This document shows positions 3,001 to 58,373 of a DNA stretch of 64,000 nt, in pieces; the first letter of the stretch is position 1, and each line of letters begins with the position of its first letter. The DNA lies in assembly GCA_022821275.1 (NCBI GenBank), contig JAJEDY010000067.1, positions 47,958-111,957 on the forward strand, written 5' to 3'. The position numbers were made by a program, and so were the translations under genes. The notes under the pieces were generated by a model that worked only from the letters and a program-made list of their open reading frames with translations, was not told where the DNA came from and ran no database searches. The stretch is from Candidatus Latescibacterota bacterium (GTDB lineage: Bacteria; Latescibacterota; UBA2968).

Positions 3001-4273
3001 AATCGAGTTCGTGCTGCAACCACACATTTTTTTCCCTACCGATATCCAGTGTTGTATCTGCCACCGTCACGCCCACGCGACGCATCCGATAGGAGGAAAT
3101 TCTTCGCGTGCGACTGCGCGATCCATCCAACCTTTCATCTTGTAAAAACTGCCCCAGATTCGACTCAAAAACCTTCTCTATTTTGAGGTGAACACGCGAC
3201 ACATTGACCGTTTGAAACCGGATTTTTCGATTACCAGAAGTGGGCAAAAATACCCCGTCACGCGCAAAACGCATGCGGGGCTTGATATCGTCAAAAGCCA
3301 CCGTCTCTGTATGCGGTTGAGCCAGTGCCATGCCCCAGCGGCTGCGAATCCCCGGATGTACGGTCAACACATAACTCTGTCCGTGCTGAAAATCGCCCAC
3401 AACACTCACTGTTTTGCCAAGCGCGGTGAGTTGAAGCTGTTGCGGTGGATCGGCAGTGATCAACCCCGCAATATCCTGACCAAAATCGAGATCATCTGAA
3501 AAAATAATGCTTACGCTCGGGCGGTCCCGGTCCGCGTATTTTTCAATCTCAACAACGAAAAATGCCGACAAAGGGGGAAGAGACCATGTATTGTCGTAGT
3601 CTTGCGAGAGTTCCAGATCAGCTCGATCAATATGCATCGCAAGTTCCTGAGACTCTCTTGTGCGCGTGATCACGGCACTCGTAAAATCGTGCGTCTTGCC
3701 ATCTGGCAACACGCGCCAATAGAGTGCAAGCCGCTGATCTCCCAGGCGCAACGCCACCGCATCGCTCACAACCGAAGAATCCGCGCGTTCGTTAAAGCTA
3801 ATCTGACCGCTAAAAACGAGACGCTGCGGATCATCCGCATCTGGCAACTCAAAATCTGCCTCGAGTGCGACGAGTTCTCGTCCCGCGACCTCAAACTGGA
3901 TAACGAGTGGCTTCAGATCTTTGTGCTGAGGAAACAAATCGACCATGCTGAGTTCACCGCTATAGACCGCGCGCAACGTCAACGGTGCGTTTGGCTTAAA
4001 AACAAGCGTACGCTCATCTTCCCATGTCGCCAAACCGTCAATAGATGGAACAAAGCGAAACACGCGCGTTCGCAACACCTGACCAACCTGACTTTTGCCA
4101 ATAACAGGCGACACAAAGCGCACGCGAATTGGATCAGTAGAGGCGAGCACCCCCTCACTCACATGACTCACCATACGCGCCGTCTCCAAAGGATAGGATT
4201 GCGGCGCGTCTTCGGGCGACCTTTTGCTACACGCAAACAGCGTCAGCAACGCGAGGAGAGAAATACGGTATGA
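1..4273 (-). CDS. Alpha-2-macroglobulin family lipoprotein, 5' ~1424 codons only; gene runs off the window start
   Basis: Hand translation of the minus strand from the ATG at 4271-4273 gives MSYRISLLALLTLFAC..., a lipobox signal peptide. The frame stays open to position 2, which is why it is absent from the ORF track. The revcomp of 149-172 encodes YPYGCVEQ, the canonical A2M thioester motif, followed by a ...INAAIRRLRRFQLPSGAL segment similar to the YfhM post-thioester region. Confidence 0.85.
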
Positions 4274-4285
4274 CATAGCGGCCTC

Positions 4286-4963
4286 CTATACCCTCCCATC
4301 AGCCGCATCGGCAATCCATGTCAAATAGGACCTGTGCCCGTGCGACACGGAAAATGAGATAGACAAATTCCTCAACCGTTTTTTCAGTGACCTCAAGCGC
4401 CCTTTTACAGTCATCACAAAAAGCACGGTACCTTCATCTTGATCCGGCGACAAAAAATACTGCGAAAAAACATCCACCCGCGCGGCCAACCGCTCGGCAA
4501 CAAGCGCGTGCCCAACGCGATTTGCCTCCGCTTCAGATGGCATGGAAAGAGCCAGAATATAAGGCGCAGTTTGCACCCCACCTTGAACCGTGACATTGAG
4601 ATCATCTTTACCCAGACTCCGTGCCGCCTGGATCTTTCGCACAACCGTATGCACCACAAAAAACACCAGACAAATCATCATCCCGATAACAACGTGCTTC
4701 ATCAACCCGCTGAAAAACGCGCCCTGCTCTCGATCCTCCGCCTGAAAAAATGCATGCTGAAAACGCCCATCCGACTCCACAGCCAACTTTCTCGCAATAA
4801 CGCGCACCTGTGCATTCGCTACGGGCGGCAACGGCTTCACGCGCTCAGAACCATACAGCGAGCGAATCATCTCCCGCGCAATACGCGAGGCATTCTCTTC
4901 CTCAGCCCCTGCGGATGTAGCAAAACAAAACGATAAAAGTATAAATATCCAGATTTTTAACAT
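4286..4963 (-). CDS. Hypothetical secreted protein (signal peptide), co-directional and immediately upstream of the A2M gene
   Basis: 225-aa ORF with N-terminal MLKIWIFILLSFCFATSAGA. It lies 13 nt upstream of the A2M start on the same strand. No recognisable family. Confidence 0.5.
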   Translation of the reverse strand: MLKIWIFILLSFCFATSAGAEEENASRIAREMIRSLYGSERVKPLPPVANAQVRVIARKLAVESDGRFQHAFFQAEDREQGAFFSGLMKHVVIGMMICLVFFVVHTVVRKIQAARSLGKDDLNVTVQGGVQTAPYILALSMPSEAEANRVGHALVAERLAARVDVFSQYFLSPDQDEGTVLFVMTVKGRLRSLKKRLRNLSISFSVSHGHRSYLTWIADAADGRV

Positions 4964-8847: not shown

Positions 8848-9837
8848 ATGCCACTCAAAATTGCACAAATCGGCAGCGACGGACATCAGAACATGGTACT
8901 CGACGGCATCGCGCACATCCCCGACGCACAACTCATCGCCTGCGCCAAAGGGCATCCCGACGACACCCTCGCCAAAATCAAAGCACACGCAGCATTCACC
9001 GCACACACCCGCCTGTATGACGACTATCGCCACATGCTCGACACCGAAGAAATCGATCTCGTCAGCATCTGTCGTCCGTATTCTCTCAATGCCGAAGCCT
9101 CAATAGCAGCAGCAAACCGCGGAATCGACATCGTCAGCGAAAAACCCGTTGCAACCACTCTGAAAGATCTCGACGCCCTTGAAACAGCGGTCAAAAACAG
9201 CGGTATTCGCCTCACCGCCATGTTTGGCCTGAGATTATCCCCCGCATTCCGCGCTGCACACCAGGCAGTCCAGGACGGCCTCATCGGCGAACCCATTCTG
9301 GCAACCGCACAAAAATCCTATCGCTTTGGCACGCGCCCGGACTTTTTCAAACAGCGAGAAACTTACGGCGGCACAATCCCCTGGGTCGCAATCCACGCTG
9401 TCGATTACACGCGCTGGACAACCGGGCGTGAATACACGCAAGTCGCCGCCCTTCACGGCAACCTCGCCCATCCCGACTATCCCGGCTGCGAAGACCACGG
9501 CGGCATGCTCTTTCGCCTGAGCAATGGCGGCACGGCAATGATCAACCTCGATTATTTGCGCCCGTCAACAGCACCCACCCACGGCGACGACCGCCTCCGA
9601 ATCGCCGGATCAGAAGGCGTCATCGAAGTCATCGACGACCACACACATCTGATTCGCTCGGGCGAAGCACCCCGCGACCTGCCCTTGCCACCCGAAGAAA
9701 ATTTTCTCGTCAACCTCCACGGCGAACGCACCGGCAAAGCACCCCACATCATCGGTCCCGACGAAGCCATCAAAGTCACGCGCCTGTGCCTGCGTGCACG
9801 CGAAGCCGCGGACACGGGCAATGTGCTCACACTCTGA
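8848..9837 (+). CDS. Gfo/Idh/MocA family oxidoreductase
   Basis: N-terminal Rossmann region MPLKIAQIGSDGHQ... and the EKP motif (IVSEKPVATT). Confidence 0.85.
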   Translation: MPLKIAQIGSDGHQNMVLDGIAHIPDAQLIACAKGHPDDTLAKIKAHAAFTAHTRLYDDYRHMLDTEEIDLVSICRPYSLNAEASIAAANRGIDIVSEKPVATTLKDLDALETAVKNSGIRLTAMFGLRLSPAFRAAHQAVQDGLIGEPILATAQKSYRFGTRPDFFKQRETYGGTIPWVAIHAVDYTRWTTGREYTQVAALHGNLAHPDYPGCEDHGGMLFRLSNGGTAMINLDYLRPSTAPTHGDDRLRIAGSEGVIEVIDDHTHLIRSGEAPRDLPLPPEENFLVNLHGERTGKAPHIIGPDEAIKVTRLCLRAREAADTGNVLTL

Positions 9838-9872
9838 GGGGTTGGGGACCAGGGGATGGTGAGGATGGGTGG

Positions 9873-9907
9873 ACTTCACACTTCTCACTTCACACTTCTT
9901 ACTTCTT
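9873..9907. repeat. Tandem heptamer array (ACTTCAC ACTTCTC ACTTCAC ACTTCTT ACTTCTT), preceded by a G-rich tract 9838-9872; copy A of a dispersed family
   Basis: Five perfect-phase 7-mers read directly from the sequence. They sit between the convergent Gfo and M24 peptidase genes and overlap the last codons of the peptidase. Confidence 0.8.
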
Positions 9908-11032
9908 CAACACCAGCGGATAATCCGTCAAATTTTGCACCCCGTCTTCCGTCACCAAAAACGTATTCTCCAATCGGATACCCCCGTTCAAAGCCTCGCT
10001 ATACGCACCCGGCTCACAGGAAAAAACCGTGCCCACCTCAAAAATACCTTCCCGGTCCCGGTTCAAATCGGGCGGTTCGTGTGCGCGAATCCCCACGCCG
10101 TGTCCCGCGTGATGAATCAGCCCGATATCGGACAAATGCGGATGCTCTCGGATTCTCTCATCAATCGCGTGCCACAGTGCAGTTCCCCGTCCACCAGGCC
10201 CTACCAGATTGGGAACATCCTCTAAAATAGCTTTCAAAAGATCGTACACCGACGCCTGCAAATCCGTGGGATCGCCCACGGCAAAAGTGCGGCACAGATC
10301 GGACCAGTACCCGTGATATTCCGTCTGCGCGTCGATAACATACAACTCCCCATCTTCAATAATCCGGTCTCTGGCAGGCCCGCCCAATTGCCCGCACTGG
10401 TAATCGCCCCCGTGGTGCAGCACTTCACCCGCTGCATTTAGCGCGACCTGTTGCCCCGCCGCGAGCACATCCAGTTCATTTACACCCGGCGCAATCACCT
10501 CTTGTACGCGGTCATAAGCCCGCAGATTAATATCAATCGCCTTTTGCAACATCGCAACTTCATCGGCGTCCTTACTCATCTGCTGTGCAATCAGCAAATC
10601 GTCTATCCCCACCCACGCGCAGCCCAGAGCATCTGCCATTGTATCGGCGAGCAACTTGGGCGTGGCTTCCTGCTGCCAGCCCAAACGAGAAATACCCCGG
10701 CAATCGCGGAGCTTCTGCGCCACAGCCGCATTTAGCAAACGCATCGGATCGGGATTCATCGTATAGAGCACATGCGAATCGTACACCACGCGCTCATCCA
10801 CAGCCACATCCCCTTCGTCGGTCGTTGACGCCAGCCACGACCCCCCATCGGTCTCCAGATACAGAAGCGCGGGAAAAGAAAATGATGGATATGCCCCCAG
10901 GAGCACGCCGGTCAAATAATAGATATCCCGATAATCTGTAATAATAACCGCGTCAATCCCCTCCTCAGAGAGACGCGCTCGAAATCGCTGCTGCCTGCTG
11001 CGGCAGCCTTCCAAAGTGAGCATAACACACAT
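9899..11032 (-). CDS. M24 family metallopeptidase (Xaa-Pro aminopeptidase/creatinase-like)
   Basis: Pita-bread-fold motifs (HGVGIRAHEPP, GIRLENTFLVTEDG) and a creatinase-like N-terminal domain. Possible alternative start at 11023 (MLTLEG). Confidence 0.8.
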   Translation of the reverse strand: MCVMLTLEGCRSRQQRFRARLSEEGIDAVIITDYRDIYYLTGVLLGAYPSFSFPALLYLETDGGSWLASTTDEGDVAVDERVVYDSHVLYTMNPDPMRLLNAAVAQKLRDCRGISRLGWQQEATPKLLADTMADALGCAWVGIDDLLIAQQMSKDADEVAMLQKAIDINLRAYDRVQEVIAPGVNELDVLAAGQQVALNAAGEVLHHGGDYQCGQLGGPARDRIIEDGELYVIDAQTEYHGYWSDLCRTFAVGDPTDLQASVYDLLKAILEDVPNLVGPGGRGTALWHAIDERIREHPHLSDIGLIHHAGHGVGIRAHEPPDLNRDREGIFEVGTVFSCEPGAYSEALNGGIRLENTFLVTEDGVQNLTDYPLVLKK

Positions 11033-15246: not shown

Positions 15247-15281
15247 AAGCCCTCCTGCGAAGAACAGGAGGGCTTTTGTTC
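15247..15281. terminator. Rho-independent terminator, likely bidirectional
   Basis: AAGCCCTCCTG / CAGGAGGGCTT stem with a 7-nt loop. T-rich runs on both strands. It lies between convergent genes. Confidence 0.7.
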
Positions 15282-20646: not shown

Positions 20647-21423
20647 ATGCGCCAATACCTGTGGATCGCAATATTTTTAATCGGCTGTGGCAACACCACT
20701 GCGCCGACGCCTACTGAATCCGACCTCACCGCCCAACACGCGCGTCTGGAACCCGTGCAATTTCAAACGCCAGACGGCTTTCTGTTATTTGGCACACTCT
20801 TTTCTTCTCCCAATCACGCAGCACCTCGTCCCGCGGTCATCTTACTCCATCAGTTTAACGAAAACCACGTTCAGTGGGCGGACTTTGTTCCCGAACTCGT
20901 TGCCGAGCGGGGCTATCTGGCACTCGCCTTTGACCTGCGCGGACATGGCAACAGCATTTTTCGCAATGGGCAACCATTCCCACTCCAGAACTTCTCCCTT
21001 GATGACATCAACCAGATGCCGCTCGATGTCGTCGCTGCAATTGCATTTCTCAAAACCCGCGCGGAAGCCGACCCCAATCGCATCGGCGTCATCGGCACAG
21101 ACATCGGCGCCGATATCGCCTTTGTGAGCGCGGGACTGTTCCCAGACATCAAAGCAACCGTATCCGTTTCTCCTAACTTTCTCGGGGACCAAGTTCAGGA
21201 AATTCTCATCGGCACCAATATCTCCGGTTTTGCACCACGCAATATTCTCTACCTCGCAGCTTTTGGCGATGGCTATGCCTATACCACATCTCAAACCATG
21301 TCTGAATTGACTCAGGGTGTTACTGCCGTAATCGGCTATCAAGGAACGGGACGTGGACTCGATTTACTCGCCCAGGGCAACGCGTGGACAACCGTCCTGG
21401 ACTGGCTCGACAAAAATCTTTGA
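20647..21423 (+). CDS. Alpha/beta hydrolase-fold lipoprotein (dienelactone-hydrolase-like) with an atypical G-T-D-I-G nucleophile elbow
   Basis: Lipobox signal LIGC and an HGNS region. The elbow reads GVIGTDIGAD, with Asp where Ser or Cys is expected. Confidence 0.55.
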   Translation: MRQYLWIAIFLIGCGNTTAPTPTESDLTAQHARLEPVQFQTPDGFLLFGTLFSSPNHAAPRPAVILLHQFNENHVQWADFVPELVAERGYLALAFDLRGHGNSIFRNGQPFPLQNFSLDDINQMPLDVVAAIAFLKTRAEADPNRIGVIGTDIGADIAFVSAGLFPDIKATVSVSPNFLGDQVQEILIGTNISGFAPRNILYLAAFGDGYAYTTSQTMSELTQGVTAVIGYQGTGRGLDLLAQGNAWTTVLDWLDKNL

Positions 21424-21467
21424 AACGATGTATGAAAGCGCGTCACTTCTTCACACAGGAGGCAATC

Positions 21468-22967
21468 ATGCGACCTTCAAGATGGCTATCGATCTTACTG
21501 ATTGGCACGGCACTATGCGCCATGGACATGTCAGATATTTACGCACAGCGCGGTGGTGGCGGTGGACGCGGCGGCGGTGGACGCGGCGGTGGCGGTGGTG
21601 GACGCGCAGATTTGAGCCCCCAGCAACGCAGACAATTTGCCGAATACCCCTGGGATGCCCAAAAGCTCCTCGAAACCAACGCGCAGATTCTCAACCAAAT
21701 GCCAGCACCCATACAGATGTACATACTCGATCAGGCTAAAAAATGGGACGATCTGTTTCCCGTTCGCCACCAGCAACTCGAACTCTTTTTTCGCAAAATC
21801 GTCAATACTGACCGCCAGGAATTTAACGCGGTATTCGGCAATATCTTGCGCGAATTTCAGGCACTTCAGGGCGGCAGACAGGGACGCCAGGGGCAAGGAG
21901 TACGCGGCGGTGGACAGGGAGGCCGACGAGGACAAGGAGCACGCGGCGGTGGGCAGGGACGCCAGGGGCAACAAAGAGCACGCGGCGGTGGTGGACGCGG
22001 AGGTCCCAGTCTGAATATCACCGACATTACACCTGCTCAATACGCCATGCTCGAACACGCTTTCGAATCTTTTGTCCTATCAGACCAGGGCTTGCCCAAA
22101 GGCGTGATCATCATTGCGATCACCGGATCGGAACCCGGATCGAATATCCCCGCCTATCTGACTTACAGAGGGGCATTATTTAACAATATCGACTACGGCA
22201 AAAAATCGCGCGATTGGATGACCACCGTTCAAACGGCTTCACCCAATGCAATCAAAGGCAAAAATCTCAAAGTCCCTTCTATATTTGAATATCACAACAA
22301 AGCCATTGAGGACAAAACTCATACGCGCACACTGGCTTTCTATCAGTCCGGGGAAAAAGAAATCCCTCCCATCGTTAGCAAAACCAAGGGCTATGGTACC
22401 AGATACAGCCCCTCTGCCGTCAACGCACCCAGCCTCGAAAAAATCGCAGGCACCATAGAAGAACAACTCGGCACAGCCATAAAACAGGGCAAATCGCAGC
22501 GGTATATCGACCGCATGGTCAAACCCAAGCTGACCCCAGAAGCACTCAAACTCAAAAAAGTTATCAAAGATGAGGCGTTTGGCCGGCTGGTATCCGGCGT
22601 ATTGATGGACAGCGAAGAAAGCCGCAAACTCGGCAGCGCGTTCATCATCGAGGTCACACAAAAAGCCATGGATGCCGCACTCCCCGATATCGTCTTCATC
22701 GAAATGAAAGCCGGCGATGTCTCTACCCAGACCATCTCTCAATTTCACGACACAATCAGCGCCATGGCGCGCTATGGCAGCGGCGTGACATTCGCCCTAT
22801 TCGATCAACCTGCCAGTCAGGCACTCATCATCAGTCCCAAAATCATTGGCGGCCAATCCCTTGACGGTCAAAGCCTCGAAAACATATCCGCCACCCTTGC
22901 CAGAGCGAGCAGCCTCATGCTCGACGGAGCAACGGGAACGCCTGTTGCAGAGGTGAGAATGCGTTAA
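21468..22967 (+). CDS. Secreted protein with two Arg/Gly (RGG) low-complexity repeat tracts and an unrecognised C-terminal domain
   Basis: Signal peptide MRPSRWLSILLIGTALCA. Repeat tracts GGGGGRGGGGRGGGGGGR and GGRQGRQGQGVRGGGQGGRRGQGARGGGQGRQGQQRARGGGGRGG. AGGAGG ribosome-binding site before the ATG at 21468. Confidence 0.6.
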   Translation: MRPSRWLSILLIGTALCAMDMSDIYAQRGGGGGRGGGGRGGGGGGRADLSPQQRRQFAEYPWDAQKLLETNAQILNQMPAPIQMYILDQAKKWDDLFPVRHQQLELFFRKIVNTDRQEFNAVFGNILREFQALQGGRQGRQGQGVRGGGQGGRRGQGARGGGQGRQGQQRARGGGGRGGPSLNITDITPAQYAMLEHAFESFVLSDQGLPKGVIIIAITGSEPGSNIPAYLTYRGALFNNIDYGKKSRDWMTTVQTASPNAIKGKNLKVPSIFEYHNKAIEDKTHTRTLAFYQSGEKEIPPIVSKTKGYGTRYSPSAVNAPSLEKIAGTIEEQLGTAIKQGKSQRYIDRMVKPKLTPEALKLKKVIKDEAFGRLVSGVLMDSEESRKLGSAFIIEVTQKAMDAALPDIVFIEMKAGDVSTQTISQFHDTISAMARYGSGVTFALFDQPASQALIISPKIIGGQSLDGQSLENISATLARASSLMLDGATGTPVAEVRMR

Positions 22968-25356: not shown

Positions 25357-25564
25357 TCTCTCCTGGGGTTTTGCAGTATTCTCTGATCTGATGGGACAAA
25401 TAAAATAACCCTACATTCCACCTTTACACCATTGTTTTTTGACCCTCTTTGTTATATTTTATATTAGCTGCCCGTCCTATAACAAGTGGGAACATAGGCA
25501 CCGCCTTTACGTATAAATGAAAGATCGGCTACTTCCCACTTCTCATTCCTCAAGAGGTAATCTC

Positions 25565-44488: not shown

Positions 44489-44516
44489 ACTTCTCACTTC
44501 TCACTTCTCACTTCTT
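44489..44516. repeat. Tandem heptamer array (ACTTCTC x3, ACTTCTT), copy B of the dispersed family
   Basis: Read directly from the sequence. It sits in the 123-nt gap upstream of the sulfatase gene. Confidence 0.75.
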
Positions 44517-47643: not shown

Positions 47644-47709
47644 AAAAGGAAGTTGTATTAAATCTTTCCAACTCGGCGGGATGAACACCCGTCGAGTTGT
47701 TTATTTTTT

Positions 47710-55579: not shown

Positions 55580-56338
55580 GTGAGTGAATTAGCCATTGAA
55601 CTGCGAGATGTTCACAAGGTTTTTGTGACCGACAGCAACCGGGTAGAAGCACTCGAACAAATTTCTCTGCAAATAGCGCAGAGCGAATTTGTCAGTATGA
55701 TCGGACCCTCGGGATGTGGCAAAACGAGCTTAATGCGGATTGTCGGCGACCTGGAAACACCGACGAAAGGCACGGTTCGCGTACTGGGAAAAATACCCGA
55801 AGCCGCGCGGCGCGAACGATTGGTGGGTTTTGTATTTCAACATCCCTCGCTTCTCGCCTGGCGCACAGTAGAAGAAAATGTGCGCCTACCTGCAGAGGTC
55901 TTTGGAGACGCAGAAATTTTAAGCCGGGTCTCTGAAATGATCGACATCGTCGGACTGGCTGGATTTGAGCAGGCGTATCCGCGCGAACTATCGGGCGGCA
56001 TGCAATCGCGAGTCGCCATTGCCAGAGTTTTGACCTTCCGACCATCCGTTTTGCTTATGGACGAGCCTTTTGGCGCATTGGATGAAATGACGCGGGAAAA
56101 AATGCAAATTGAACTGTTGCGAATATGGCAGGCAACGGGTGCCGCTGTCTTATTCATTACCCACAGCATCTCCGAGGCATTGCTCCTCTCGGACCGCGTT
56201 GTGGTCATGTCTGCCAGACCCGGCAAAATCGCGGAAGACCTGCGCGTTAATTTTCCCCATCCTCGAGAAAGCACCTTGCGCGCCGATCCCCAATTTGTGG
56301 CAATGGAAGCCCATCTGCGCGAACAGTTGGAAGGATAA
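55580..56338 (+). CDS. ABC transporter ATP-binding protein (NitT/TauT-like), without an adjacent permease or binding protein
   Basis: Walker A GPSGCGKTS, signature LSGGMQSR, Walker B LLMDEPF. GTG start. Confidence 0.8.
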   Translation: MSELAIELRDVHKVFVTDSNRVEALEQISLQIAQSEFVSMIGPSGCGKTSLMRIVGDLETPTKGTVRVLGKIPEAARRERLVGFVFQHPSLLAWRTVEENVRLPAEVFGDAEILSRVSEMIDIVGLAGFEQAYPRELSGGMQSRVAIARVLTFRPSVLLMDEPFGALDEMTREKMQIELLRIWQATGAAVLFITHSISEALLLSDRVVVMSARPGKIAEDLRVNFPHPRESTLRADPQFVAMEAHLREQLEG

Positions 56339-56343
56339 ACTTT

Positions 56344-56462
56344 GGAAGTAAAAAGTGTGAAGTGAGAAGTAAGAAAGCCCACCCTACCACCCAAAATCTG
56401 GTGTCTCATCCCCCTTCACATTTCACACTTCATCCTTCATCCTTCATCCTTCACACTTCTTC
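56344..56462. repeat. Inverted pair of heptamer arrays separated by a 36-nt C-rich spacer, copy C of the dispersed family
   Basis: Arm 1, 56344-56377, is the reverse complement of CTTTCTT ACTTCTC ACTTCAC ACTTTTT ACTTCC. Arm 2, 56414-56462, is CTTCACA TTTCACA CTTCATC x3 CTTCACA CTTCTTC. It lies between convergent genes and overlaps the last 4 codons of the hydrolase. Confidence 0.8.
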
Positions 56463-58373
56463 CATATCCGCCCCCCAGGGCTGTATGAGCGCGAGTTTTT
56501 CATCCAAAGCGTGCATCAGATCGGGCAAATCAAATGATGTGAGAACACCCCGGGGGATATTGGCAGCAGGCCAACTGACCAGGGGCGTTTGTGTCCAGGC
56601 ATGAAAGGAAAGCGGATAGTTTTTCAGGGTAACAGTCGTCACCGCGGAATGCAGAAATCCGGCAAACAGCGCGTGAATTGCACCCTGTCCACGACCGTAA
56701 AGATGGAGTTTTTCCGCGCCTTCATAAGCCAGCAGATCAAGCGTGGATAACACATCGTGTACCCGCCGCCCGAGAAAGCTTTGACCGAGCATCAGGCCAT
56801 ATCCATTGCACATATAGTCATTGCCATAAGGATGAAAAAAGTCGCGTTCATCATCGGCAAGCGACTCCCCCAGACCGCGCACATCGAGTGCATAGATCGG
56901 ATGTTGTTCTTTCAGTCTTTTCGCAAAAGGATCTTCAATCAAATCCACTTCCGCAGAAACATGTGGCAAATAGAGATGAACTTCGCGCTCGACATCAAGC
57001 GTATGCGAATAAGACGGATTGGACAGGCGTTTCCGCATAATAGCGCGGATATTGTCCTCAGTTTCAATCGCATACCGCGCCAAACGAACGCCATCTTCTG
57101 TCGTACCGCGCAACCAGCGGTGGTGGGGCTGGTCGCGGTTGTCAGACAAATCGAGCGCGCTTTGCACACAACGAATGAGTTCATCTTTGCCCAGCTTTTT
57201 GCGTTTTGATGCAAGAACATCTGCTTTTTGGGCAATCAAATCGTAAATGGGCGTAGCCCCTTCGGGCACAACCTCGCCTTTCGGCGTGACATTTAAAACA
57301 TCGCTCAAGTCCTCGGTCTCTTCCAAACGGGTAACCTGCTGAATGCCCGCCTGTGTTGCAAAAAATTGCACCATAGCTTCCTGGTTATCTCGGAAAAAAC
57401 CGTGGCCTTCTGACCCGATAAAAATATCAGTCGCATTGGCTGGCGCGCCAATAATATCGTAAAAACGACGGATTTCAGAATAGGCTTGTTTGAGGCCGCG
57501 TCGGTCAAAAAAGCAATAGGCTTGCCCGAGCAAGATGACGGGAGCAGGTGCTCGGGCAATAAAAAAATCGGCCATATCCAGACCCGCGCCAATCACACCC
57601 GGCGGATACTGTTCCGAATCGGCGGGCAATTCATTTTCGAGATTGGCGGCAAACGTGGTGACAAAGCAACTGGGAGCAGCCATAGTAAAACGCGCTTCCA
57701 CCGGCCAGATCCAACTGGTCATAGTACCACCACCCGAATTGCCCGTAAGCCCAATATGCGCGGGATCGACTTCGGGACGGGTAAGCAAATAATCGAGTGC
57801 GCGGATACCATCCCAGGCGCGCCATGCACCAAACCATTCGCCCACGAGTTCGAGTTGTTTACCCATCATATTGTGGGCATGTGTTGACGATCGCACGCTT
57901 TCTCGGCTGTGCAGGGCATAATATTGATCGCGCTCACCTTGATTGAAGGGATCGTAGATCAAGACGACAAAGCCATTGCGCGCCAGACGCTGACAAAAAG
58001 CCTGATAAAGCGGTGCATTTTTGCCATCGGCAGCATGACCACAAGAGCCAATAATACCAGGTGCTGGCCCATCGAGTTTGTCGGGCACGTAAAGGTGGGC
58101 CGTGACCAAACAACCCGGACGGCTCTCAAAGAGGATTTTTTCAATGCGGTAATGGCGGCGTTCAACTGTGCCGACGACGCGCGCATTAAGCGGTGTTTTG
58201 CGCGGCCAGGGGCGATAGGCCTTGCCAATGGACTCTCGCACTTCATCGCGATATGCGAGAGCTTCTTTTTTTGTTCGGATAGATGACAGGCGTTTTGCGC
58301 GGTCGGCATTTACAGCTCGTACGCGCGCAACATAATCATCCATCACCATATGTCCATAACCATTTCGCGGCAT
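56451..58373 (-). CDS. Alpha/beta hydrolase (acetylxylan-esterase/peptidase-like) with an internally duplicated fold
   Basis: The first half carries an intact nucleophile elbow (LTGNSGGG). The second half has a Ser-less elbow (LYGRGQGAIHALFAG). 640 aa. Confidence 0.55.
   Translation of the reverse strand: MPRNGYGHMVMDDYVARVRAVNADRAKRLSSIRTKKEALAYRDEVRESIGKAYRPWPRKTPLNARVVGTVERRHYRIEKILFESRPGCLVTAHLYVPDKLDGPAPGIIGSCGHAADGKNAPLYQAFCQRLARNGFVVLIYDPFNQGERDQYYALHSRESVRSSTHAHNMMGKQLELVGEWFGAWRAWDGIRALDYLLTRPEVDPAHIGLTGNSGGGTMTSWIWPVEARFTMAAPSCFVTTFAANLENELPADSEQYPPGVIGAGLDMADFFIARAPAPVILLGQAYCFFDRRGLKQAYSEIRRFYDIIGAPANATDIFIGSEGHGFFRDNQEAMVQFFATQAGIQQVTRLEETEDLSDVLNVTPKGEVVPEGATPIYDLIAQKADVLASKRKKLGKDELIRCVQSALDLSDNRDQPHHRWLRGTTEDGVRLARYAIETEDNIRAIMRKRLSNPSYSHTLDVEREVHLYLPHVSAEVDLIEDPFAKRLKEQHPIYALDVRGLGESLADDERDFFHPYGNDYMCNGYGLMLGQSFLGRRVHDVLSTLDLLAYEGAEKLHLYGRGQGAIHALFAGFLHSAVTTVTLKNYPLSFHAWTQTPLVSWPAANIPRGVLTSFDLPDLMHALDEKLALIQPWGADMEEV

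Follow-up and report, generated by a model that had tools for sequence, protein, structure and literature searches.

Tandem heptamer arrays of the unit ACTTCNY at gene boundaries in a Latescibacterota contig are probably simple-sequence repeats

The window analysed here is a whole stretch of 64,000 nucleotides of Candidatus Latescibacterota DNA from a metagenome scaffold (ENA ERZ23491296, KELL22-1 scaffold_339), in which direct reading and TRF identified period-7 tandem arrays of the unit ACTTCNY at 9873-9907, 44489-44516 and 56344-56462. The first array sits between a GFO/IDH/MocA gene (stop 9835-9837, plus strand) and an M24 peptidase gene (stop 9899-9901, minus strand), the second lies in the gap between a PhyH gene and a sulfatase gene, and the third, an inverted pair, sits between an ABC ATPase gene (stop 56336-56338, plus strand) and an alpha/beta hydrolase gene (stop 56451-56453, minus strand). 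These are the three copies reported in the original prediction, and both approaches placed them where it had located them. TRF returned 4.9 copies of period 7 at 9873-9906, 3.9 copies with 100% matches at 44489-44515, and, within the third array, 4.4 copies at 56345-56375 with units on the minus strand and 6.6 copies at 56414-56459 with units on the plus strand. Searching the window for the dimer ACTTCNYACTTCNY with at most one mismatch yielded 13 matches, compared with 0.71 ± 0.90 expected from 100 dinucleotide shuffles (maximum 3), and revealed an additional small fourth copy at 25531-25551. The ENA and Logan assemblies carry identical sequence across the arrays, an agreement that is not a test of independence. 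The array strand had been described as purine-free; it contains A, and is G-free instead. The features are as follows.

9838-9872, plus strand: G-rich head that starts with GGGGTTGGGG and ends in GGGTGG, directly after the TGA of the GFO/IDH/MocA gene; about 7-nt periodic and G4-like.
9873-9907, plus strand: (ACTTCNY)x5 array that overlaps, at its 3′ end, the terminal codons (..L K K) of the M24 peptidase gene on the minus strand and that gene's TAA stop (9899-9901).
25531-25551, plus strand: mini-array ACTTCCC ACTTCTC ATTCCTC in the 5′ leader of an AhpC/TSA gene, whose probable ATG (25566) is 15 nt downstream.
44489-44516, plus strand: array of (ACTTCTC)x3 plus ACTTCTT between the PhyH and sulfatase genes, ending 11 nt ahead of the sulfatase ATG (44527).
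56344-56378, minus strand: left arm, CTTTCTT ACTTCTC ACTTCAC ACTTTTT ACTTCCA, pyrimidine-type and lineage-specific, beginning 6 nt past the ABC ATPase stop.
56379-56413, minus strand: spacer, C-rich on the plus strand; read on the minus strand, it forms a G-rich head of the GGGTGG type, and the minus-strand pyrimidine units follow directly 3′ of it.
56414-56462, plus strand: right arm, (MCTTCAY)x6.6, whose minus strand is a GAAG-type purine array encoding E-E-V and the TGA stop (56451-56453) of the hydrolase.

All four copies are intergenic or cover only the final codons of a gene, and the intergenic share of the window that holds them is about 7% by ORF call (4,719 of 64,000 nt). Pfam matches and gene calls confirmed that two copies lie between convergent genes and extend over the stop and final codons of the minus-strand gene, as had been predicted, and the copy assigned to a 5′ intergenic gap does lie in one, ahead of the sulfatase start codon. 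With the excess of dimer matches over shuffled sequence and four of four copies at gene boundaries, the proposal of a dispersed, non-random family was borne out: the arrays are real, non-random and confined to gene boundaries in the window. Two broader accounts were rejected. The first, generally 7-periodic intergenic DNA in the lineage, failed in that only two of 30 gaps stand out, and the second, a cyanobacterial origin, in that the HIP1 sequence GCGATCGC gave two matches where three were expected. Tandem repetition of another sort occurs at 21549-21991: here the plus-strand ORF 21384-22967, which looks like a gene for a glycine-rich repeat protein, contains G-rich repeats (GGCGGTGGA-like) with periods of 9, 15 and 39.

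At the hydrolase locus, the predicted inverted repeat with arms of about 30 bp is present but imperfect, its arms being 25-31 nt long, 71-80% complementary and 39-60 nt apart, and it pairs in several alternative 7-nt registers. We compared this locus with three syntenic relatives of 92-95% protein identity (L123, L124 and L125). The purine array of the right arm is conserved in position among them with 3-7 units: the window has seven GAAG-type units at the hydrolase stop, L123 five, L124 four and L125 three, and all four arrays begin right after the same (G/A)ATATG codon in one 7-nt register. The pyrimidine-type left arm, on the other hand, is found in the window only and is missing in all three syntenic relatives; L124 carries other G-rich heptamers at its position. 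The gap between the hydrolase and ABC ATPase genes measures 112 nt in the window, 15 nt in L123, 121 nt in L124 and 10 nt in L125. Relatives of 83-86% identity have a decayed array at this locus, and the 73% outgroup has none.

The hydrolase proteins record the same turnover at their C-termini. Close homologs are labelled Gemmatimonadota or Candidatus Latescibacterota, and those of 92-98% identity (P0001-P0032) read ...QPWGADM or a close variant, followed by EEV, SEV, GEV, SEVESEK, SEEGSVKEEV or similar. The array at the stop has kept its position throughout this clade, and unit changes affect only the last 3-10 residues. The 90% homolog P0033 ends in ...WGAIWEK, and homologs of at most 80% identity have a conserved tail that is about 25 residues longer (KPLSGK...). 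The ancestral C-terminal tail of the hydrolase, about 25 residues, has been replaced by array-encoded residues ending in E-E-V. In a closed relative the hydrolase is recorded as two products, P0135 and P0138 (355 and 295 aa), which suggests a frameshift or pseudogene in that genome.

The peptidase locus varies in a similar manner. Across the gap 9838-9898 the lag-7 match is 0.50, compared with 0.32 at other lags. A 97% relative (L160) has a related array whose distal half is different, an 86% relative has a 4-nt gap with the array absent, and an 82% relative (L162) has a 763-nt spacer containing GGGAGGGGTTGGGTGG and then (ACTGACA)x5. The leader array at 44489 is likewise absent from L129, a relative with a sulfatase of 95% identity, where the gene ends on both sides align but the spacer between them does not. 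Thus, unit number varies in register among close relatives, and arrays are gained and lost at orthologous sites.

Several other elements were seen in the relatives at or near these loci. L160 contains a small GC hairpin (GCGGCATCCCTGCCGC) at 1270-1300, inside the heptamer array downstream of its M24 peptidase gene. The 763-nt spacer past the M24 peptidase gene of L162 holds two direct copies of about 110 nt (4270-4510), each with the palindrome CCCCCCTTCCTTAGAGGAAGGGGGG; these belong to a separate repeat family that contains hairpins. Between the GFO/IDH/MocA gene and recJ, L123 (15427-17423) and L125 (15366-17379) carry a two-gene insert, absent from the window and from L124, that encodes an AAA_15/AAA_21 ATPase of about 505 aa and a protein of about 160 aa with no Pfam match; it is a small variable island and may be a defence module. 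Other heptamer families (CAGTAGT, ACTGACT, CAGGGAA and ACATCTC) also occur nearby in the relatives, including (CAGTAGT)n, (ACTGACT)n and (CAGGGAA)x10 at L124 12803-12828, L125 9965-9989 and 21122-21146, and L128 12654-12725. In one relative a heptamer array separates a PPK2 stop from an ABC start; the corresponding gap in the window is just 14 nt.

The G-rich tract at 9838-9872 and the C-rich spacer at 56379-56413, which had been noted separately, both exist but turned out to be one kind of module, a GGGTGG-type head located 5′ of a pyrimidine array. The same GGGTGG/GGGTTGGG head was found directly 5′ of heptamer arrays in L041, L124, L126, L128 and L162. Such heads precede pyrimidine-type arrays of several units, the instances in the window being at 9838 and 56413. 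The suggestion that the C-rich and G-rich partners could form G4 or i-motif structures stood for the head alone: 9838-9869 matches a G4 pattern (G3+N1-12, four times), while the array itself, having no G-run, is incapable of adopting either structure. GGG is absent from both ACTTCNY and RNGAAGT, so the array unit lacks the G4-forming feature of GGGNATC-type repeats, in which a G-run of at least 3 in every unit lets four units build a G4. We also considered the head as a G-enriched purine arm that pairs with the array by G-U pairs. The interval 9838-9907 fits this idea on the plus strand (-27.1 kcal/mol), but with z = -1.25, and the idea was dropped as a general rule because the head in L162 precedes (ACTGACA)n, with which it is unable to pair.

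The recurrence of a head-plus-array composite, in either orientation to the flanking genes (9838 in the window versus L162 4819), together with the dispersal of the copies and the REP-like position of one palindromic copy between convergent genes, could point to a REP/MITE-like mobile element that inserts at gene ends, as the original prediction had listed among its candidates. REP/BIME elements of enterobacteria are palindromes of about 35 nt with a conserved head that are mobilised by RAYT. The arrays resemble them in being intergenic, often between convergent genes, and in possibly forming hairpins at mRNA 3′ ends, but differ in consisting of a variable number of 7-nt units, with three of the four copies not palindromic. 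Nothing is common to the copies beyond the heptamer and the short G-rich head, and their lengths range from 21 to about 119 nt with no defined ends. Terminal inverted repeats or target duplications were not apparent on reading alone, without a dedicated search, and neither the Pfam matches of the ten flanking genes in the window nor the Pfam labels of related loci included a transposase or RAYT-like gene. Orthologous sites differ in unit number or lack the array, rather than showing presence or absence of a defined element. We therefore set aside the REP/MITE-like candidate, which we regard as highly improbable.

We then examined how ACTTCNN arrays are distributed beyond this lineage. Species-representative genomes were scanned for four ACTTCNN units, which identified at least 120 loci (per-genome counts are lower bounds) in Bacteroidota, Acidobacteriota, Verrucomicrobiota, Planctomycetota, Cyanobacteria, Gemmatimonadota, Latescibacterota, Myxococcota and others, and the loci were oriented with ACTTC on the top strand. 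Among the matches listed, TRF detected 218 period-7 arrays, 98 of them not ACTTC-type, as well as 1, 4, 12, 16 and 7 arrays of periods 5, 6, 8, 10 and 11, respectively. Also among the matches listed, 89 of 106 ACTTC arrays were intergenic, and ACTTC arrays were often flanked by arrays of other heptamers, with a 7-nt periodicity that faded over about 60 nt on each side. An ACT core common to all heptamer units was considered and dropped, as it was present in 21 of the 98 non-ACTTC units among the matches listed.

These loci are strongly oriented with respect to genes. The nearest ORF lay 3′ of the array in 57 cases versus 28 (p = 0.002; among the matches listed). Within 50 nt, the commonest neighbour among the matches listed was the stop codon of a gene with GAAGT in sense (38, versus 15 in the opposite orientation), a bias present in both GC strata. 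Strand bias relative to transcription had been raised in the original prediction, and it is present in the cross-phylum matches listed: for Pfam-supported ORFs, stop-adjacent arrays had the purine strand in sense in 29 cases versus 9, a count that is based on greedy, Pfam-checked ORF calls and leaves out the roughly one quarter of stop-adjacent ORFs without Pfam support. Arrays overlapping a stop codon were purine-sense in 10 cases versus none (after the Pfam check, among the matches listed), whereas arrays within 50 nt of a start codon showed no orientation bias (13 versus 11 among the matches listed).

Inverted partners follow a polarity as well. Among the matches listed, 18 of 110 arrays (16 independent loci, about 16%) had an inverted partner within 150 nt upstream and two had one downstream; with 26 of 4,771 windows as the background, partners are enriched about 30-fold near arrays. 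The purine arm thus comes first in 18 pairs versus 2 among the matches listed, which means that both convergent transcripts would read the purine arm first. Other upstream signals were not general across phyla: the upstream flank was not purine-rich (0.45-0.53 purine) and upstream G-runs were not enriched (15 of 104 versus a background of 12.5%), both among the matches listed. The strong cross-phylum polarity is not predicted by plain slippage. Coding may explain part of it: with the purine strand in sense, the units specify short hydrophilic tails and soon run into a stop codon, so that only arrays in this orientation can encroach on ORF ends.

Such a polarity could reflect RNA 3′-end elements, in which a long hairpin after the stop codon, formed by a purine arm with a pyrimidine arm or with a G-U-pairing head, terminates or protects mRNA in both directions. 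The enrichment of inverted partners, with the same arm order for both convergent transcripts, and the preference of arrays for adjoining stop codons agree with this explanation, and 56336-56470 folds at -26.6 kcal/mol on the plus strand (z = -4.4) and at -36.2 kcal/mol on the minus strand (z = -2.0). The interval 9830-9915 folds on the plus strand only, via G-U pairs (-27.1 versus -12.9 kcal/mol), although its z-score of -1.25 is not better than shuffles. The copies at 44489 and 25531 have no inverted partner and do not fold (z of about -0.3), only about 16% of arrays among the matches listed have a partner, and the pairing arm at the hydrolase locus is absent in L123, L124 and L125. An Rfam search gave no match at the gathering score, its hits being chance matches to plant miRNA and snoRNA models only (E 0.2-0.8). 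The candidate of a conserved structured RNA terminus was accordingly not supported, given these chance matches and a pyrimidine arm restricted to the window.

Termination itself was addressed with an intrinsic-terminator scan. A rho-independent terminator consists of a GC-rich stem with a loop of 3-8 nt, followed by a U-tract. The scan of both convergent loci found no site at the arrays and no U-tract, which bears out the earlier statement that the arrays are unlike rho-independent terminators. Canonical intrinsic terminators were found elsewhere in the window, at 15247-15275 (minus strand) and 47669-47699 (plus strand), where 12-bp GC-rich stems are followed by T-runs just past genes, indicating that the organism uses canonical terminators. 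Weighing these observations, we consider it quite unlikely that the arrays are RNA 3′-end elements.

The leader copies raise a different possibility, namely that the arrays are phased candidate sites for a single-strand-binding protein with a footprint of about 7 nt, which would tune translation initiation at 5′ positions or Rho loading at 3′ positions. Candidates for such a binder are cold-shock-domain proteins, ribosomal protein S1 and Rho, whose primary sites bind YC dimers. The copies at 44489 and 25531 lie immediately ahead of start codons with their G-free, C/U-rich strand in sense, and no Shine-Dalgarno-like purine run was found between the 44489-44516 array and the sulfatase ATG. S1, Csp or CsrA has been proposed to bind the TAACTGA repeats that occupy the same position (MacGregor 2015, PMC4679880), and the avoidance of the pyrimidine-sense orientation after stops (9 versus 29) would fit selection against premature Rho loading. 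Against this, the leader array is not conserved in the 95% relative, as a required site should be, the unit varies freely at two positions and between loci, and the arrays near start codons are unbiased in orientation. We regard binding sites of this kind as an improbable explanation.

A more general reading is that ACTTCNN arrays are cross-phylum gene-boundary elements with an intrinsic polarity, which would arise from an RNA-level function or a dedicated generating mechanism. It draws on the purine-sense orientation after stops, on the purine-arm-first pairs, and on the GGGTGG-type head that marks the switch from purine to pyrimidine in this lineage. The ACTTC core in at least 120 loci and the recurrent G-rich head likewise hint at sequence-specific selection or a specific generating mechanism. 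If this reading were true, candidate functions would include 3′-end hairpins, avoidance of Rho loading and phased binding by OB-fold proteins with 7-nt footprints, and the preference of so many bacteria for a period of seven would be explained. On present evidence we think it unlikely.

Several known systems share properties with the arrays. Cyanobacterial STRR heptamers are said to have been described by Mazel in 1990. A phase-variation SSR switches a surface or restriction-modification gene on and off through changes in unit number, and lies in the promoter spacer or the 5′ coding region of that gene; the arrays in the window lie instead at the 3′ ends or in the leaders of peptidase, hydrolase, sulfatase and peroxiredoxin genes. 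Closer to the present case are the heptameric G-rich SSRs GGGAATC and GGGGA(C/T)T of Xanthomonas and Nostoc (Rehm et al. 2015, PMC4692102). Like those GGGNATC repeats, the arrays here are tandem 7-nt units that are strongly intergenic, vary in unit number between close relatives and occasionally form inverted pairs (PMC4692102). They also obey the same polarity rule, with the purine strand in sense after stops (PMC4692102), and all four copies in the window conform to the Rehm-type positional rule: 9873 and 56414 overlap stops in the purine-sense orientation, and 44489 and 25531 are purine-antisense before starts. They differ in the unit, ACTTCNY (GNGAAGT on the other strand), which has no G-run, and in the host, an uncultured lineage labelled Latescibacterota or Gemmatimonadota.

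The TAACTGA direct repeats of Beggiatoaceae, Cyanobacteria and Bacteroidetes (MacGregor 2015, PMC4679880) offer a second comparison. They share with the arrays the placement of heptamers directly before start codons without Shine-Dalgarno sites (here 44489-44516), the mixture of heptamers in one spacer, and indels in 7-nt increments between strains (PMC4679880), and the relatives of the window carry ACTGATA/ACTGACT units that are near-rotations of the Beggiatoaceae TAACTGA. In contrast to TAACTGA repeats, half of the copies in the window are at 3′ ends rather than at start codons, the unit is different, and inverted pairs, which number 1 in 170 for TAACTGA in BOGUAY (PMC4679880), involve 16% of ACTTC arrays among the matches listed.

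At a broader level, Mrazek, Guo and Shah (2007) described the LSSR5-11 class, in which, as summarised in PMC4679880 and PMC4692102, heptanucleotides are the most abundant long-unit SSRs in many genomes of non-pathogens; the explanation proposed for them is a general propensity to lengthen through polymerase slippage, not a specific function. As in that class, so far as these summaries describe it, period 7 dominates here over periods 5, 6, 8, 10 and 11 among the matches listed. The LSSR5-11 work was a statistical survey, and its summaries do not mention the ACTTCNY unit, the head-plus-array composite or the purine-first polarity of pairs. A literal text search of the literature for ACTTC/GAAGT dimer strings gave no match for the ACTTCNY unit.

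Taken together, we consider it likely that the arrays are heptanucleotide simple-sequence repeats, microsatellite-like and of the class LSSR5-11/STRR. They consist of head-to-tail 7-nt units (3.9-6.6 copies by TRF, where the class calls for at least 3-4) that are commoner than chance, vary in unit steps among relatives, and show a non-coding bias with several unit families present. At orthologous sites they lengthen and shorten by whole units, appear, disappear and decay, which is how an SSR behaves and not what would be expected of a conserved RNA or a transposable unit. We infer that strand slippage creates the arrays and lengthens or shortens them seven nucleotides at a time. They would persist where sequence is dispensable, that is, in intergenic gaps, leaders and the last few codons, and would decay by point mutation. 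An array in the purine-sense orientation could grow into the 3′ end of an ORF, as GAAGTNN units encode tails of E, K, S and V and soon a stop. The pair at 56344-56462 would then have formed recently, and in this lineage only, when a purine array, a G-rich head and a pyrimidine array came to lie side by side; it can fold as an imperfect hairpin, and any terminator or RNA-stabilising effect of that hairpin would be incidental and not a conserved function. The arrays themselves appear to be neutral or nearly so. Speaking against this account are the cross-phylum polarity, the recurrence of the ACTTC core and of the G-rich head, and the retention of the array at the hydrolase stop throughout the 92-98% clade.

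ACTTCNY is thus a new unit family of a documented kind, the heptanucleotide SSR (PMC4692102, PMC4679880). In many bacteria no long-unit repeat is commoner than the heptameric SSR, and both its function and the 7-nt period are unexplained (PMC4692102). The cross-phylum polarity is the most interesting loose end, in a kind of repeat that as a whole is still without a mechanistic explanation. For annotation, we propose that such arrays be flagged as heptanucleotide SSRs and not as terminators, REPs or sRNAs, and that altered final codons and stops be anticipated in the genes next to them. The present case adds a unit family that is widespread across phyla, a series of close relatives with clean in-register turnover, and a quantified polarity, purine-sense after stops and purine-arm-first in pairs, for any mechanistic model to explain.
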